Assembly: GCF_003334785.1 (NCBI RefSeq)
Contig: NZ_QOWV01000042.1
Origin: Escherichia coli
GTDB lineage: Bacteria > Pseudomonadota > Gammaproteobacteria > Enterobacterales > Enterobacteriaceae
Strand: one strand, 5' to 3'
DNA: 5,682 bases
A model generated the notes under the pieces. The model made no database searches, was not told the origin of the DNA, and saw nothing but the letters and a program-made list of their open reading frames with translations. Of this stretch, positions 1 to 5,652 are shown in pieces (the first letter of the stretch is position 1; every line of letters starts with the position of its first letter). The position numbers were made by a program, and so were the translations under genes.

Positions 1-73
1 GGTCATCGCCGAAACTGACGGTTTTCAGACTCTTGATCTCATCGTCCAGATAGCGGTTCAGCTCGAGGTGTTC
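1..73. repeat. One unit (missing its first 2 nt) of the 75-bp coding tandem repeat; the array continues beyond the left edge.
   Basis: ggtcatcgccgaaactgacggttttcagactcttgatctcatcgtccagatagcggttcagctcgaggtgttc differs at 2 of 73 positions from 5163..5235. Bases 74..~130 look like a degenerate further unit. Confidence 0.9.
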
Positions 74-229
74 ATAATCTTCACTGACGCTAAAACTCTT
101 AACATTTTGTAGCATCTTATATTCGTACTTCAGCTTCTCTATTAACTCATTACTTAAATCATCAAGAGCATCATGGTCATATTTCGATGACATCAGATGC
201 GATTTTTTAATCATAAATCTGCCATCCAT
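1..229 (-). CDS. Acidic 25-aa tandem-repeat protein, paralogue A. The start codon is inside the window and the 3' end runs off the left edge (76 codons visible).
   Basis: AGGAG at 240..236, a 6-nt spacer, then ATG at 229..227. This lies 13 nt downstream of the stop (245..243) of the PIN-like ORF on the same strand. Hand translation: MDGRFMIKKSHLMSSKYDHDALDDLSNELIEKLKYEYKMLQNVKSFSVSEDYEHLELNRYLDDEIKSLKTVSFGDD..., with no stop before the window edge. Bases 1..73 are one unit of the 75-bp repeat seen at 5101..5640. The ORF is absent from the ORF track, presumably because it is truncated by the edge. Confidence 0.65.
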   Translation of the reverse strand, partial: MDGRFMIKKSHLMSSKYDHDALDDLSNELIEKLKYEYKMLQNVKSFSVSEDYEHLELNRYLDDEIKSLKTVSFGDD

Positions 230-242
230 ATGATACTCCTTC

Positions 243-1493
243 TTACTCTGTTATTGATGAAAGGATTGAGCTCATCTTCTGAATAGAAGATAACTTTCCT
301 TTCATTAGAAGTCTAATTTTAGCCATTATCTCAGGATCTGTCGCAGATTCTAGCTTTTTAGATAGACCAGCAATTTCTGCCTTTTCTCTTTTTATTCTGT
401 TTTCTAGGAGTGCTCGGTGTTCACTGTTGCTTGTGTTACTTCCAGCTCCATACCCATTCCCTGTTGAAATGTTGAGGTTTTCGGTGTTTATTTTAAGATC
501 GAATGCGTTGTTTATATTTAAGATTAGTTCTTTTGTGTTTATTACATCAAAAAATTGAACGCTTGAGTTATTTAGCATTTCCTCTCTTAATATAGCGTGA
601 ACGCCTTTGTTTTCTCTATTTTCTTTATCTCTACCAACTTTAAATATGAAGTCATCTTTTGCATCATTAGTGATTAGGAAAACGTTTTTCGCACCTGTTG
701 ATGCGGCATGCTCTAGAGTTTCTTTCCATATGTAGAAATCACCATAAGCTCTTTGATAAGTAATGCCGTCATAAGAGAATATATTGTCTGGCTTTCCTAC
801 CTTGTCTGCGTCACAGAATCCAGGGGGCGTTTTTAATTCATACCTTGATTTACATTCAGCATCTAATCCATTAATGTATTCTTGGTCCTTTTTTACGCCT
901 ATTTTTCCAGAGAATATGTTGTCAATCCATTCTCTATGTATGTCTTTTGTATTTAACTCATCAATTGATTCATTGAGTTTTCCATACATATCCTCTAGTC
1001 CTGAGTTTAATAAATCAATGGATTTTTTTATTAACTCAGATACTTGTCTGTTTAGCCCTTCGTAATGCCTTGCTTTGGAGTTGTTGCATTTTTCTAATAG
1101 TTTTGATGAATAAGATAATAAATCAACAACAGGAGATGTTGTTGTTGATATCAAGTGTTTCTGATCGTCGATAACCCCTAATCTTCTTCTCTGATACTCC
1201 AACGCAGTAAAATAAGGGAGATATATATTTTCTCTTATCTGTTCTATTGATTTCTTTATCGCAGATATTGTTTCCTGGTTGTTTCTATATAGGTCTAATA
1301 TGACATTGGTGTCAAAAACAAATAATGTATCATCTGCCCTGTATATATCAGGATTGTCCTTTATGTTGCCTGTATAAAATCCTTTAAACATATCCCTCAT
1401 CGACATAAAAAAGCCCCTATTATTCATTTCTGTTTTGTTCTTTTCGTCAGTTGCTGACTCTTGTGTCAACATCAAAATCAATCGATCATGCAA
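243..1493 (-). CDS. PIN-like domain protein (putative metal-dependent nuclease, DUF4935-like pattern) with a C-terminal helical tail.
   Basis: This is the longest ORF in the window (416 codons). Motifs in order are FVFDTNVILDLY (D61), YLPYFTALEYQRRR (E99), PPGFCDADK, YGDFYIWKETLEHA (D252) and VFLITNDAKDDF (D277/D280/D281). These are followed by a low-complexity NISTGNGYGAGSNTSNS stretch and a roughly 55-aa Lys/Glu/Leu-rich tail. The true start is probably internal: ATG at 1406 (M30) has AGGGG at 1418..1414 with a 7-nt spacer, and ATG at 1427 (M23) is an alternative. The 1493 start lies only 9 nt from the RNAII -35 box and upstream of a perfect TTGACA at 1469..1464. Confidence 0.8.
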   Translation of the reverse strand: MHDRLILMLTQESATDEKNKTEMNNRGFFMSMRDMFKGFYTGNIKDNPDIYRADDTLFVFDTNVILDLYRNNQETISAIKKSIEQIRENIYLPYFTALEYQRRRLGVIDDQKHLISTTTSPVVDLLSYSSKLLEKCNNSKARHYEGLNRQVSELIKKSIDLLNSGLEDMYGKLNESIDELNTKDIHREWIDNIFSGKIGVKKDQEYINGLDAECKSRYELKTPPGFCDADKVGKPDNIFSYDGITYQRAYGDFYIWKETLEHAASTGAKNVFLITNDAKDDFIFKVGRDKENRENKGVHAILREEMLNNSSVQFFDVINTKELILNINNAFDLKINTENLNISTGNGYGAGSNTSNSEHRALLENRIKREKAEIAGLSKKLESATDPEIMAKIRLLMKGKLSSIQKMSSILSSITE

Positions 1494-1501
1494 ATGATCT
1501 C

Positions 1502-1530
1502 TTGAGATTCCTTTTTTCTACGCGTAATCT
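1502..1530 (+). promoter_or_regulatory. RNAII (primer) promoter.
   Basis: TTGAGA at 1502..1507, a 17-nt spacer, then TAATCT at 1525..1530. These are the same hexamers and spacing as the pBR322 RNAII promoter (TTGAGA-17-TAATCT). The expected start is near G1539. Confidence 0.7.
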
Positions 1531-1538
1531 TTCTTCCT

Positions 1539-1646
1539 GTAAACGAAAAAACCACCCTGGCAGGTGGTCTTTTCGAAGGTTAGATAATCCTGGCAGATTC
1601 TCTAACCGTGGTAACAGTCTTGTGCGAGACATGTCACCAAATCCGT
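1539..1646 (-). ncRNA. RNAI: RNAI antisense copy-number regulator (about 108 nt).
   Basis: The minus strand starts ACGGATTTGGT (pMB1: ACAGTATTTGGT), 6 nt after the TACACT -10 box. It ends in an ACCACC/GGTGGT hairpin (1551..1568) followed by a T6 run on the minus strand, at the same position as the pMB1 RNAI terminator. It is fully complementary to the RNAII 5' end. Confidence 0.75.
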
Positions 1647-1652
1647 CCTTTC

Positions 1653-1682
1653 AGTGTAGCCTCACTCAGGCCACCACTTCAA
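1653..1682 (-). promoter_or_regulatory. RNAI promoter.
   Basis: On the minus strand: TTGAAG (1682..1677), a 17-nt spacer, then TACACT (1658..1653). These hexamers are identical to the pBR322 RNAI promoter as I recall it. Confidence 0.65.
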
Positions 1683-2299
1683 GAACTCTCGATACATCTC
1701 TCGCACATCCTGTTTACCAGTGGCCGTTGCCAATGGCGATTAGTCGTGTCTTTTCGGGTTGGACTCAAGACGATAGTTACCGGATAAGGCGCAGCGGTCG
1801 GACTGAACGGGGGGTTCGTGCATACAGTCCAGCTTGGAGCGAACTGCCTACCCGGAACTGAGTGTCAGGCGTGGAATGAGAAACCGCGGCCATAACAGCG
1901 GAATGACACCGGTAAACCGAAAGGCAGGAACAGGAGAGCGCACGAGGGAGCCACCAGGGGGAAACGCCTGGTATCTTTATAGTCCTGTCGGGTTTCGCCA
2001 CCTCTGACTTGAGCGTCGATTTTTGTGATGCTCGTCAGGGGGGCGGAGCCTATGGAAAAAGCGCCTGCGGCGCGGCCTTTTTCGGGGTTTCCGTTTTTGC
2101 GCACATGTTCTTTCCCGGGTTATCCCCGGATTCTGTGGATAACTGTGTTACCGTTTTTGTGTGAGTCAGTACCGCTCGCCGCAGCCGAACGACCGAGCGT
2201 AGCGAGTCAGTGAGCGAGGAAGCGGAAGAGCGCCGGAAGCTACATTTTCTCCTTACGCATCTGTGCGGCATTTCACACCCGGCATGGTGCACTTTTCAT

Positions 2300-2400
2300 A
2301 CCATCCGCACTGATGCTGCATGAGTAAGCCAGTATACACTCCGCTATCGCTACGTGACTGGGTCATGGCTGCGCCCCGACACCCGCAAGGTCAACGGCCT
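2300..2400 (-). other. oriT: bom/oriT (basis of mobility) with the ColE1-type nic site.
   Basis: The minus strand reads ...gcgatagcggagtgtatactgg|cttactcatg. The ColE1/pBR322 nic motif CTGG/CTTA falls at 2332..2325, with the nic between 2329 and 2328. The flanking gtgactgggtcatggctgcgccccgacaccc is near-identical to the pBR322 bom region. Confidence 0.75.
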
Positions 2401-2477
2401 GACGCGCCCTGACGGGCTTGTCTGCTCCCGGCATCCGCTCACAGGCAAGCTGTGACCGTCTCCGGGAGCTGTATGTG

Positions 2478-2669
2478 TCAGAGGTTTTCACCGTCATCAC
2501 CGAAACGCGCGAGGCAGCTGCGGTAAAGCTCATCAGCGTGGTCGTGAAGCGATTCACAGATGTCTGCCTGTTCATCCGCGTCCAGTTCGTTGAGTTTCTC
2601 CAGCAGCGTTAATGTCTGGCTTCTGATAAAGCGGGCCATGTTAAGGGCGGTTTTTTCCTGTTTAGTCAC
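2478..2669 (-). CDS. rop: Rop/Rom RNA one modulator (copy-number control).
   Basis: The 63-aa product MTKQEKTALNMARFIRSQTLTLLEKLNELDADEQADICESLHDHADELYRSCLARFGDDGENL matches the pMB1/ColE1 Rop sequence as I remember it. It has a GTG start at 2669..2667 and GGAGG at 2679..2675 with a 5-nt spacer. Confidence 0.95.
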   Translation of the reverse strand: MTKQEKTALNMARFIRSQTLTLLEKLNELDADEQADICESLHDHADELYRSCLARFGDDGENL

Positions 2670-2710
2670 TGATGCCTCCGTGTAAGGGGGGATTTCTGTT
2701 CATGGGGGTA

Positions 2711-3058
2711 ATGATACCGATGAAACGCGAGAGGATGCTCACCATACGGGTTACTGATGATGAACATGCCCGGTTACTGGAACGCTGTGAGGGTAAACAA
2801 CTGGCGGTATGGATGCGGCGGGTCTGCCTGGGTGAGCCGGTTGCCCGTTCCGGGAAGCTGCCGACACTGGCACCGCCGTTACTGCGCCAGCTGGCTGCCA
2901 TCGGGAATAACCTGAATCAGACAGCGAGGAAGGTGAACAGCGGGCAGTGGTCTTCCGGCGACCGGGTTCAGGTGGTGGCCGCACTGATGGCCATCGAGAG
3001 AGAGTTGCGCAGCTTACGGCAGGTCGTCAGGGGACAGGGAGCGCGGGATGATAGTTAA
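2711..3058 (+). CDS. mbeC: MbeC/MobC-type relaxosome accessory protein (ribbon-helix-helix).
   Basis: MLTIRVTDDEHARLLERCEGKQLAVWMRRVCLGEPVARSGKLPTLAPPLLRQLAAIGNNLNQTARKVNSG... is ColE1/pMB1 MbeC, whose 5' part survives in pBR322 next to rop. The ORF is open from 2672. In-frame ATGs occur at 2672, 2702, 2711, 2720 and 2735, so the start is uncertain. I chose 2711 because it gives about 115 aa. The stop TAA at 3056..3058 overlaps the mbeA start. Confidence 0.85.
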   Translation: MIPMKRERMLTIRVTDDEHARLLERCEGKQLAVWMRRVCLGEPVARSGKLPTLAPPLLRQLAAIGNNLNQTARKVNSGQWSSGDRVQVVAALMAIERELRSLRQVVRGQGARDDS

Positions 3059-3425
3059 GTTTCATGCCAGGGGGAAAGGTGGTGGCAGTGGTCCGGTTGA
3101 TTACCTTCTGGGAAGGGAGCGTAACCGGGAAGGTGCAACGGTACTGCAGGGTAACCCGGAAGAAGTCCGGGAACTCATCGATGCCACGCCATTTGCGAAG
3201 AAATATACGTCCGGTGTTCTGTCGTTCGCGGAGAAGGAACTGCCGCCGGGAGGACGTGAAAAAGTTATGGCGAGCTTTGAGCGTGTACTGATGCCCGGTC
3301 TTGAAAAAAATCAGTACAGCATCCTGTGGGTGGAGCACCAGGACAAGGGACGGCTTGAGCTGAATTTTGTCATTCCGAACATGGAGCTACAGAGCGGAAA
3401 ACGCCTCCAGCCGTACTACGACCGG

Positions 3426-3477
3426 GCAGACAGGCCGAGAATTGATGCCTGGCAGACAGGCCGAGAATTGATGCCTG
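3426..3477. repeat. Perfect 2 x 26-bp tandem duplication inside mbeA.
   Basis: gcagacaggccgagaattgatgcctg occurs at 3426..3451 and again at 3452..3477. It is followed by gcagac (3478..3483), so the unit is bounded by 6-bp GCAGAC microhomology. Confidence 0.95.
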
Positions 3478-3761
3478 GCAGACGCTGGTTAATCACCATT
3501 ACGGGCTGCATGACCCCAACGCCCCGGAGAACCGCCGGATACTGACTCTCTCTGATAACCTGCCGGAAACGAAACAGGCGCTTGCAGAGAGCGTCACACG
3601 CGGGATAGACGCTCTTTATCATGTCGGGGAGATAAAAGGCCGTCAGGATGTGATTCAGGCGCTCACAGAGGCAGGGCTTGAAGTGGTCAGGGTGACGCGA
3701 AGCAGTATCAGCATTGCAGACCCGAACGGTGGGAAGAATATCAGGCTGAAAGGAGCATTTT

Positions 3762-4292
3762 ATGAGCAATCTTTTACAGACGGGCGCGGAGTTCGAGAAA
3801 AAGCTGAAAGAGAGAGCCGAATCTACAGAGACAATGCTGAACGACGAGTTCAGGAAGCTCGAAGAATCTGTAAACAGGGAGCTGACCTCAAACGAATCTT
3901 TAATCAGGAACGCTATCAACGACCATACAGCAGCCCTGAAAGAACTTCTGGAGAGGTATCAGAAAACGACCGTCAGCACGATGGACACACACTGGCAAAC
4001 CGTGCTGAAAATGAGCGTGAAACGCTGGCTGTGGCTGATTATCGTCTCAGTACTGATGTTTGCCACGACCGGGAGTCTGCTGTGGTACCAGGGCATGAAG
4101 ATAAACGAGAATATGAATATTCTCCGCGAGCAGAAAGAGAGTCTGGAGAAGCTGAACGCGAAGACATGGGGCGTGCGTTATCACGAGGACAGCAACGGAC
4201 GTTTTCTGGTGTTGCCGAAGGGGATGAAAGCCGAAACGAACTGGACGAAGGACAACGGCAAACTGAACGCAGTGAGACTGGTGCAGGAGTGA
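3762..4292 (+). CDS. mbeB: MbeB mobilisation protein, nested out of frame within mbeA.
   Basis: A 176-aa ORF with AGGAG at 3751..3755 and a 6-nt spacer before the ATG. It has one hydrophobic segment (WLWLIIVSVLMFATTGSLLWY). Its position and size match ColE1 mbeB. Confidence 0.8.
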   Translation: MSNLLQTGAEFEKKLKERAESTETMLNDEFRKLEESVNRELTSNESLIRNAINDHTAALKELLERYQKTTVSTMDTHWQTVLKMSVKRWLWLIIVSVLMFATTGSLLWYQGMKINENMNILREQKESLEKLNAKTWGVRYHEDSNGRFLVLPKGMKAETNWTKDNGKLNAVRLVQE

Positions 4293-4298
4293 CAGAGC

Positions 4299-4532
4299 AT
4301 GACGGAGCTGGAAAGACATTTGCTGAACGCCTTAGAGCAACTGCAACAGGACTATATGCAGCGGCTGAACGAATGGGAGAGCGCCTTCGTGGAATTGCAG
4401 AAAATGTTTTCGCTTACGCAACGGGACAACGCGATGCTGAACGAGCGGGTCATGCAGTTGAGTCAGCAGGTGCAGCACTTGAGCGAGCGGACAGAACGCT
4501 TGAGCCAGTTATACAGCGAGAACAGGAGATAA
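4299..4532 (+). CDS. mbeD: MbeD mobilisation/entry-exclusion-associated protein, nested within mbeA.
   Basis: A 77-aa ORF starting 7 nt after mbeB, with AGGAG at 4285..4289. It is helical and heptad-rich (LLNALEQLQQDYMQRLNEWESAFVELQ). Its position matches ColE1 mbeD. Confidence 0.8.
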   Translation: MTELERHLLNALEQLQQDYMQRLNEWESAFVELQKMFSLTQRDNAMLNERVMQLSQQVQHLSERTERLSQLYSENRR

Positions 4533-4562
4533 GGGACGAACGGCTGATACAGGAGCGCGAAC

Positions 4563-4760
4563 ATGCGTTATCCCTGGAGCGTGAGCGCCAGCCGGAAATA
4601 CAGGAACGCACACTGGATGGCCCTTCGCTGGGATGGTAATCAGAGACAGGCTAAAATGTTGTCAGCGCGTTTCCGGTGCATTTTTTGGGATAATGGTTGG
4701 TTCGGGGGCACCGGGAACGCGCTTCAGTCAGACCTTGCTGAAAACACAGGAACGCGTTAA
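4563..4760 (+). CDS. Small Trp/Arg-rich ORF overlapping the mbeA 3' end (possible mbeE-like ORF; not recognised).
   Basis: AGGAG at 4551..4555 with a 7-nt spacer before ATG 4563 is a good ribosome-binding site. The 65-aa product has no motif I recognise. ColE1 is described as having a fifth small mbe ORF, but I cannot verify correspondence. Confidence 0.25.
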   Translation: MRYPWSVSASRKYRNAHWMALRWDGNQRQAKMLSARFRCIFWDNGWFGGTGNALQSDLAENTGTR

Positions 4761-4849
4761 AACGCATACGGGCGCGATTCTGGTGTATCTTTTGTTGCTG
4801 TGTTTTGCCGTTATTGCCAGATCGCGCTCATTCCCCTGAATTTCTGTTT

Positions 4850-5086
4850 TTCCGCTCCGGTTCCGTCTTCTGCCTTTCCGAAAGTATGAAAAAAATCCGT
4901 TTCAGCAGTCTCTGGCTGGAAATTCCTGCGTGATTCACATGGCTGCATAGCTATGCATGTGGTTAAAATTTACCGGGTGCGATCGCGGCAGTTTTTCGGG
5001 TGGTTTGTTGCCATTTTTACCTGTCTGCTGCCGTGATCGCACCGAACGCGTTTCAGTGGTGCGTACAATGGGATGTTATGGTAAAT
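4850..5086 (+). other. cer: cer-type multimer resolution site (accessory sequences plus XerC/XerD core).
   Basis: The core at 5058..5086 is GGTGCGTACAA-tgggatg-TTATGGTAAAT. Both 11-bp arms are identical to ColE1 cer as I recall it. A 14-bp perfect palindrome TGCATAGCTATGCA (4944..4957) lies about 100 bp upstream, where the cer ArgR box sits. The left boundary is approximate. Confidence 0.75.
4975..5060 (+). ncRNA. rcd: Possible Rcd-like checkpoint RNA encoded inside cer.
   Basis: A -10-like TAAAAT lies at 4964..4969. A long stem pairs gcgatcgcggcag (4979..4991) with ctgccgtgatcgc (5028..5040), 12 Watson-Crick pairs plus one G-U. The segment resembles the ColE1 cer/Rcd region from memory. Direction and ends are not established from this sequence. 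Confidence 0.3.
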
Positions 5087-5100
5087 GGCTCTCGCTAGTT

Positions 5101-5640
5101 TCATTTAATTTTTAAATTACGAAGCTCATTATCCAGATAGCGATTCAGCTCGAGGAGCTCGTGGTCATCGCCGAAACTGACGGTTTTCAGGCTCTTGATC
5201 TCATCGTCCAGATAGCGGTTCAGCTCGAGGAGTTCGTGGTCATCGCCGAAACTGACGGTTTTCAGACTCATGATCTCATCGTCCAGATAGCGGTTCAGTT
5301 CCCGGAGTTCGTGGTCATTGCCGAAACTGACGGTTTTCAGGCTCTTGATCTCATCGTCCAGATAGCGGTTCAGTTTCCGGAGCTCGTGGTCATCGCCGAA
5401 ACTGACGGTTTTCAGACTCATGATCTCATCGTCCAGATAGCGGTTCAGCTCGAGGAGCTCGTGGTCATCGCCGAAACTGACGGTTTTCAGGCTCATGATC
5501 TCATCGTCCAGATAGCGGTTCAGTTTCCGGAGCTCGAGGTCATCGCCGAAATTGACGGTTTTCAGACTCATGATCTCATCGTCCAGATAGCGGTTCAGAT
5601 AGAGGAGATCATAGTCATCGCAGACGCTAACAGTATTAAC
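5101..5640. repeat. 75-bp tandem repeat array: six near-perfect units at 5161, 5236, 5311, 5386, 5461 and 5536, plus degenerate flanking units.
   Basis: The period was verified by coordinates: gtggtcatcgcc recurs at 5161, 5236, 5386 and 5461, with the one-mismatch variant gtggtcattgcc at 5311. Units differ at only a few positions each. The variants are combinations of cagactcatgatc versus caggctcttgatc, and cagctcgaggag versus cagtt(t/c)ccggag. Confidence 0.95.
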
Positions 5641-5652
5641 AATATTTATCAA
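5101..5652 (-). CDS. Acidic 25-aa tandem-repeat protein, paralogue B (repeat domain and C-terminus). The homologous N-terminal region continues upstream past an in-frame TAG and off the right edge.
   Basis: The ORF contains seven repeat units of consensus LNRYLDDEI(M/K)SLKTVSFGDDHEL(LE/RK) and ends ...LNRYLDNELRNLKIK, with TGA at 5103..5101. The track start at 5652 is a TTG directly after TAG 5655..5653. No SD precedes it, so it is probably not a real start. It may be a disrupted gene, so pseudogene status is possible. Confidence 0.55.
   Translation of the reverse strand: MINIVNTVSVCDDYDLLYLNRYLDDEIMSLKTVNFGDDLELRKLNRYLDDEIMSLKTVSFGDDHELLELNRYLDDEIMSLKTVSFGDDHELRKLNRYLDDEIKSLKTVSFGNDHELRELNRYLDDEIMSLKTVSFGDDHELLELNRYLDDEIKSLKTVSFGDDHELLELNRYLDNELRNLKIK

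Follow-up and report, generated by a model that had tools for sequence, protein, structure and literature searches.

The sequence analysed here, referred to throughout as the window, comprises 5,682 nucleotides of Escherichia coli DNA (contig NZ_QOWV01000042.1) and belongs to a ColE1-type mobilisable plasmid, which is pIII of strain ECOR 10 or a near-identical one. Its relaxase gene, mbeA, is interrupted by a perfect 26-bp tandem duplication, which is the subject of this text. The window aligns colinearly with RCS83_pIII, the circular plasmid of 5912 bp from E. coli ECOR 10 (NZ_LT985292.1, locus L001), with 6 mismatches and 0 gaps over 5621 bp; all 6 mismatches lie at 5599-5613 within a 75-bp tandem array, in which both ends of the window also fall. 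The backbone carries the features of ColE1-type mobilisable plasmids, namely an RNAI/RNAII replicon, rom, and a mobC-mbeA(-mbeB-mbeD) module (recognised through Rfam, Pfam and annotation), and 1011 of the 1024 related plasmid records in PLSDB are of the mobilizable type. The interrupted gene consists of the following features:

3425..3483, + strand: perfect 26-bp tandem duplication, seen by Tandem Repeats Finder (TRF), by direct reading and against a shuffle control
3048..3545, + strand: truncated mbeA open reading frame (ORF) of 165 aa, made up of native residues 1-137 and a 28-aa out-of-frame tail that ends at the stop codon TGA at 3543-3545
3485..4639, + strand: orphaned 3′ part of mbeA, native codons 138-521 plus the stop codon, in the +2 frame, which is open from 3446

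TRF reports the array at 3425..3483 with a period of 26, 2.3 copies, 100% matches and no indels. On direct reading, GCAGACAGGCCGAGAATTGATGCCTG stands at 3426-3451 and again at 3452-3477, with GCAGAC coming next at 3478-3483; the junction between copy 1 and copy 2 reads …GATGCCTGGCAGACAGGCCGAG…. Both lines of evidence agree with an earlier note on this DNA (the original prediction), which had described a 26-bp tandem duplication flanked by a 6-nt microhomology. The flanking direct repeats are indeed present, but their length is 7 nt (GGCAGAC) and not 6. The heptamer occurs at 3425, 3451 and 3477, with no further one on the + strand of the window, and the 7 nt of flanking homology leave the register of the duplicated unit ambiguous within 7 positions. 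Within window positions 81..5100, the longest self-match at periods of 10-60 is 33 bases, found at period 26, whereas in 60 dinucleotide-preserving shuffles the longest self-match averaged 8.8 and reached a maximum of 13.

The original prediction had also cautioned that the duplication could be an error of assembly or sequencing, in which case the true plasmid would have a single 26-mer. The window is a draft contig, and its ends and the 6 mismatches in the 75-bp array show that the assembler struggled with repeats there. However, the identical duplication, with an identical junction, is found in three distinct assemblies with differing contig ends: the window, LT985292.1, and DABQXL010000055.1, a 5200-bp contig of GCA_014451455.1 with 100% identity to the window over 5187 bp. 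ECOR 10 was among the antibiotic-sensitive strains from which plasmid DNA was purified and directly sequenced (Branger et al., 2018, PMC6202452); plasmids below 30 kb were handled by transposon-insertion sequencing, and the annotation was manually validated by experts (PMC6202452). This sequencing is taken here to be of Sanger chemistry, and the method differs from that behind the two draft contigs (the window and DABQXL010000055.1), which are presumably short-read assemblies. Furthermore, the 59-nt perfect structure fits in one read and needs reads that span the junction, and the remaining sequence is identical to that of natural sibling plasmids. Because three assemblies carry the duplication, one of them made by transposon-assisted sequencing of purified plasmid DNA, an artefact is considered extremely unlikely.

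Comparison with the nearest relatives, a check that had been proposed alongside the original prediction, identifies the single-copy state as ancestral: the metagenome contig L011 (ENA ERZ28528053) and more than 1000 related plasmids are without the extra copy. Aligned to window positions 1..5438, L011 has 0 mismatches and one 26-bp gap. L007, L008 and L009 are also byte-identical in both halves of mbeA, in mobC, mbeB, mbeD, rom and RNAI, and in window 2300-2400. Contigs L003-L012 have the single-copy allele, GACCGGGCAGAC...GCCTGGCAGACGCTGG. When mbeA was searched against the related plasmids, a match spanning 1592 bp was obtained only in LT985292.1, and the other full-length matches listed span 1564-1566 bp; likewise, a 321-bp query around the site gave best matches of 292-295 bp among 5,426 complete E. 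coli genomes, i.e. 26 bp fewer. Removal of one copy in silico yields a 521-aa MbeA, and this exact sequence (P0016) is found on at least 24 public contigs. The siblings L005-L012 (e.g. ENA ERZ28528053 NODE_6914) carry the same PIN_8 and repeat-protein cargo in the same gene order; they differ from the window in their single 26-mer, their intact 521-aa MbeA, and a varying number of 75-bp repeats in the cargo ORF. Judged by these alignments, the 26-bp insertion is the derived state and the sole lesion relative to the intact siblings, and since it is the only difference from them, it appears to be evolutionarily very recent.

Carriers of the duplication were counted with a 47-nt junction query (3431-3477), to which single-copy alleles match over at most 27-28 contiguous bases. 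Coverage of an 81-nt query is unfit for this purpose because overlapping pieces of single-copy alleles join to 100%. The 47-nt query is fully covered in 1 of 72,556 PLSDB plasmid records, which is the ECOR 10 plasmid itself, and in none of the 5,426 complete E. coli genomes. The exact 32-nt junction had 0 matches in one-genome-per-species contigs and in metagenome contigs of the Joint Genome Institute (JGI). The stretch around the duplication site, for its part, is carried by at least 600 relatives in each of two annotated collections, with dozens of exact matches. With one plasmid record in 72,556 and no genome in 5,426, the duplication is, as far as these collections indicate, a private mutation and not a recurrent site-specific event or switch.

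These counts bear directly on the idea of a reversible on/off switch, in which duplication and precise loss would toggle mobilisation, possibly with mixed plasmid copies within one cell. The plasmid is multicopy, and the two copies plus the heptamer amount to 33 nt of directly repeated sequence, on which RecA-independent slippage deletion can act. Mechanistically, this homology makes a precise loss of one copy plausible, and such a loss would restore an mbeA identical to a natural allele. There is a very small chance that the alleles interconvert by slippage in the multicopy pool, giving a heritable and reversible OFF state from which ON would arise by loss of 26 bp and would be enriched when a helper arrives. 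If true, a ColE1 plasmid would have a bet-hedging switch that works without being programmed. However, in addition to the privacy of the junction among so many relatives that carry the site, the same change in repeat number is not seen in independent lineages, as it would be at a phase-variable locus. The site has no tract of many repeat units, folding of the ancestral 43-mer as DNA (-5.7 kcal/mol, z = -0.41) gives no significant hairpin that could promote slippage, and a single event needs no selected mechanism. The switch has no support beyond mechanistic possibility, and its probability is very low.

At the level of the protein, the consequences of the duplication are those that the original prediction had set out. 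Because 26 mod 3 = 2, the frame shifts and ORF 3048..3545 encodes a 165-aa product; the downstream frame continues open to 4639 (from 3446, with native codons 138-521 from 3485); the catalytic Tyr (Y19, in VDYLLG) and the HEN residues (H97/E104/N106) lie upstream of the break; and mbeB and mbeD are intact, and byte-identical to those of siblings with an intact mbeA. At the position of mbeA, RefSeq annotates only a 165-aa 'relaxase/mobilization nuclease domain-containing protein', WP_140410903.1 (LT985292.1). The encoded product scores 338 bits on the NCBIfam profile NF047848 (relax_MbeA_E1), covering positions 1-137 of 497 and falling short of the cutoff of 500, and the repaired 521-aa ORF scores 890 bits over profile positions 1-496 of 497. 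The locus is the mbeA gene, and its present product is not a full member of the family.

Motif I and the HEN motif are both found in the fragment, with Y19 in PVDYLLG and H97, E104 and N106 in HQDKGRLELNF. When 38 homologs are aligned (sharing 45-93% identity with the first sequence), no variation is seen at Y19, H97 and N106, and conservation at E104 is at least 90%. Conserved sequence extends to about residue 235-260, and the fragment has lost 18 positions, from N140 to F234, that are invariant in these homologs, as well as R258. In an AlphaFold2 model of P0031, an intact relative of 99% identity (mean predicted local distance difference test score, pLDDT, 80), residue 137 lies inside helix 126-142, which comes directly after the two HEN strands (93-97 and 104-110). 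Beyond this helix, the model has further helices (165-183, 190-199) and a small sheet (204-226). Searching the PDB with the MbeA sequence returned no matches, and fold comparison places the protein in the HUH-endonuclease relaxase fold. Based on the model and the alignment, the nuclease domain would be structurally incomplete and disconnected from the C-terminal half, and the plasmid would as a result be unable to mobilise itself.

It could nevertheless be proposed that the gene still works: the 165-aa product, by itself or aided by a C-terminal piece made from a restart, would nick the origin of transfer (oriT) and support transfer. Y19 and the HEN residues are retained, Pfam Relaxase matches residues 51-126 equally well in the fragment and in the intact protein, and MOB-suite types the plasmid as mobilizable, MOBP. 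In other families, isolated N-terminal relaxase domains are active, as with the minimal MobA of R1162 (2NS6, a 183-residue chain). However, the cut at residue 137 falls inside a predicted helix, well before the end of the conserved region. The fragment extends only 31 residues past N106, and the minimal R1162 domain extends roughly 60 residues beyond its metal-binding His motif, so by this analogy the fragment may be too short. The C-terminal half of relaxases is generally needed for delivery to the secretion system, and by the same kind of analogy its detachment from the nuclease would be expected to impair transfer. The first ATG, GTG or TTG in the downstream frame is GTG 3650, corresponding to native residue 193, and rescue as a split protein from an internal start was rejected because residues 138-192 would be encoded by neither piece. 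Programmed -1 frameshifting or a homopolymer slip that restores the frame was likewise rejected for lack of any slippery heptamer or run of at least 5 identical bases in 3420-3545. A functional product is therefore judged very unlikely.

The reading that we prefer is that the duplication is a real and very recent loss-of-function mutation of mbeA, generated by slipped-strand duplication, and that mobilisation was lost under relaxed selection; its probability is put at roughly 85%. Direct repeats of 7 nt, rich in GC and 26 bp apart in the ancestor, together with a perfect head-to-tail duplication and an ancestral allele that has GGCAGAC at both ends of the unit, form the signature of slipped-strand mispairing. 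In the proposed sequence of events, the ancestral mbeA carried two GGCAGAC heptamers 26 bp apart. During replication the nascent strand would have moved back from the second of these to the first and copied the 26 nt again, producing the perfect tandem duplication and the +2 frame shift. Assistance of this slippage by a hairpin was dropped as a candidate on the z value of -0.41 for the ancestral 43-mer. Translation now ends after 137 native and 28 unrelated residues. The native part breaks off within the helix next after the HEN strands; missing from the fragment are about 100 residues of the conserved N-terminal domain and all of the C-terminal half. The plasmid remains replication-proficient and would most probably be unable to nick and pilot its own oriT. 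Mobilisation in trans by a cognate MbeA is probably still possible because mobC, mbeB, mbeD, and probably oriT, are untouched.

The background of the host provides a setting in which such a mutation could have persisted. ECOR 10 was isolated from human faeces in the USA in the 1970s-80s and is an antibiotic-sensitive strain of phylogroup A (Branger et al. supplementary table, PMC6202452). Its plasmids are pI (4.07 kb) and pII (3.0 kb), both relaxase-negative, and pIII (5.9 kb), recorded as 'MOB_RNA' (PMC6202452). The three plasmids listed are all small, and no conjugative plasmid is among them (PMC6202452 supplementary table), which suggests that the mobilisation genes are under relaxed selection in ECOR 10 and that the mutation probably persisted for this reason. 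A knock-out that was positively selected, for example through relief from relaxosome nicking or from the cost of MbeA expression, and not merely tolerated, is a further explanation. Plasmids commonly evolve by losing transfer functions (PMC11229322), and frameshifting duplications have been selected in another plasmid gene (PMC3398533). However, the mutation is known from a single lineage, and with no helper among the sequenced plasmids of the host, neutrality suffices to account for it. Positive selection is considered unlikely.

Some observations weigh against a recent loss of mobilisation as we have described it. The fragment keeps all known catalytic residues (Y19, H97, E104, N106), and its match to the Pfam nuclease domain is unaffected. 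The position of core HUH elements beyond residue 137 is suggested by the secondary structure of the model and by conservation, with a fold search that provides no residue-level mapping. All three assemblies may go back to ECOR 10 and hence not represent independent strains, and the plasmid may be heteroplasmic or may have acquired the mutation within a single laboratory stock. Finally, ECOR 10 may harbour a chromosomal integrative and conjugative element (ICE) or an unsequenced helper plasmid.

The remainder of the plasmid is organised as follows:

1543..1645, - strand: RNAI antisense RNA, a marker of the ColE1-type replicon (Rfam RF00106, 76.5 bits against a gathering score of 47)
2315..2385, - strand: probable oriT (bom/nic) region, apparently intact, assigned by its likeness to the ColE1/pBR322 bom sequence, with window 2300-2400 identical in L011
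2478..2669, - strand: rom/rop, an ORF of 63 aa annotated as a Rop family protein, with PF01815 on the same gene in L002-L012
2735..3058, + strand: mobC/mbeC-type gene for a ribbon-helix-helix relaxosome accessory protein, intact (Pfam MobC PF05713, 4e-13; NikA-like PF21983; RefSeq annotation)
3762..4292, + strand: mbeB, 176 aa, intact and nested in mbeA in another frame (PF04837 MbeB_N, 1.6e-18)
4299..4532, + strand: mbeD, 77 aa, a mobilisation/exclusion gene, intact and nested in mbeA (PF04899, 4.7e-35; NF033829, 118 bits against a cutoff of 60)
243..1493, - strand: PIN_8 protein, 416 aa (PF18476, 1.4e-41)
5101..5652 and beyond, - strand: hypothetical repeat protein with 25-aa repeats of LNRYLDDEIMSLKTVSFGDDHELxE

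The oriT region at 2315-2385 is presumably the reverse complement of the ColE1/pBR322 bom (...GGAGTGTATACTGGCTTA...), an assignment that we base on reading of the sequence and not on a curated model. A 14-nt nic core matches with 2 mismatches, but equally good matches occur in 50 of 200 shuffles, and a 28-nt pBR322 bom/nic sequence has no match in the window at up to 3 mismatches. Within the RNAII/origin region, RefSeq calls a 27-aa 'replication initiation protein' (L001 198-281, - strand, approximately window 1740-1823), which is probably an over-annotation. In the mobilisation module, mobC is identical in L011 and overlaps the start of mbeA by 11 nt. The frame of the truncated mbeA (position mod 3 = 0) is now also that of mbeB (start 3762), with the stop codon at 3543-3545 and about 216 untranslated nt lying ahead of mbeB.

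The PIN_8 gene directly adjoins the repeat-protein gene, and the pair is kept on many metagenomic ColE1-like plasmids (L003-L012). The repeats of the second protein are encoded by the 75-bp tandem array, which lies at 5125-5621 (and also at 1-73) and comprises 6.6 copies at 91% match. The repeat-protein ORF measures 308 aa in LT985292.1 and 121-371 aa in sibling contigs that contain it in full (contig ends truncate the shorter calls); the repeat number in this cargo ORF thus appears to vary. The repeat protein has no convincing match in Pfam, NCBIfam or PADLOC, and a PADLOC run on both cargo proteins gave no matches. The two genes may form an uncharacterised cargo module, e.g. a defence or toxin system.

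Two oddities of the database sequences concern mbeA and its overlapping neighbours. P0031, P0035, P0040 and others are proteins of about 400 aa in which an MbeA N-terminus (about 290 aa) is fused to an MbeB-like C-terminus; residues 289-386 of P0031 are 36% identical to residues 60-157 of the window MbeB (E = 1e-20). Such fusions resemble gene calls that run, through a frameshift or as chimeras, from one of the overlapping frames of mbeA and mbeB into the other. Also, the 90%-identity clusters that contain truncated and intact MbeA hold MobC proteins (107-118 aa), which looks like a clustering artefact, perhaps tied to the overlapping genes.

As for mobility typing, pIII is classed as mobilisable both by MOB-suite/PLSDB and by Branger et al. 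(PMC6202452), because its N-terminal relaxase fragment still matches; typing by relaxase presence can therefore overestimate mobility. In most of the PLSDB relatives, the full-length mbeA match comes with entries for MobC, MbeB and MbeD and with none for a relaxase. This probably reflects pseudogene mislabelling by the Prokaryotic Genome Annotation Pipeline (PGAP), pseudogenes not being listed in the gene table of PLSDB. Anyone working with the ECOR collection should assume that ECOR 10 pIII is transfer-defective unless complemented. The wider importance of the finding is small, and the sequence can already be found in public databases, where the relaxase is labelled as truncated.

Set against known systems, the lesion is an ordinary frameshift in an mbeA of the ColE1/MOBHEN family, with no departure from known biology and no new system. 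The HEN variant of motif III, which replaces a three-histidine motif, defines the ColE1-type MOBP5 relaxases (PMC5030251, PMC3394729, PMC12857230), and ColE1 MbeA is assigned to MOBP5/MOBHEN by Varsaki et al. (2003), as cited in those three papers. Relative to ColE1 MbeA (NF047848), the gene in the window is split by the +26 frameshift and covers only profile positions 1-137, with 338 bits against 500. The duplication resembles that in trfA1 of pMS0506, where a short perfect duplication at a GC-rich direct repeat likewise frameshifts a plasmid backbone gene (PMC3398533); the direct repeat is 7 bp in mbeA and 3-10 bp in trfA1. Unlike trfA1, mbeA is represented by a single natural isolate, without evidence of selection or parallelism. 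Pseudogenisation of transfer genes marks transitions in plasmid mobility (PMC11229322), and as in the cases described there, a mobility gene appears to have been inactivated while the rest of the plasmid is kept and automated typing still returns 'mobilizable'. In that work, 487 ColE1-type mbeA 'pseudogenes' were discarded as annotation errors, since PGAP often mislabels intact mbeA (PMC11229322). In contrast to these discarded calls, the frameshift in the window lies in the DNA itself and is the sole difference from an intact sibling. With its exact ancestor on record and a 26-bp insertion as the only difference in 5.4 kb, the plasmid would provide a clean natural example of a one-step transition from mobilisable to non-mobilisable.
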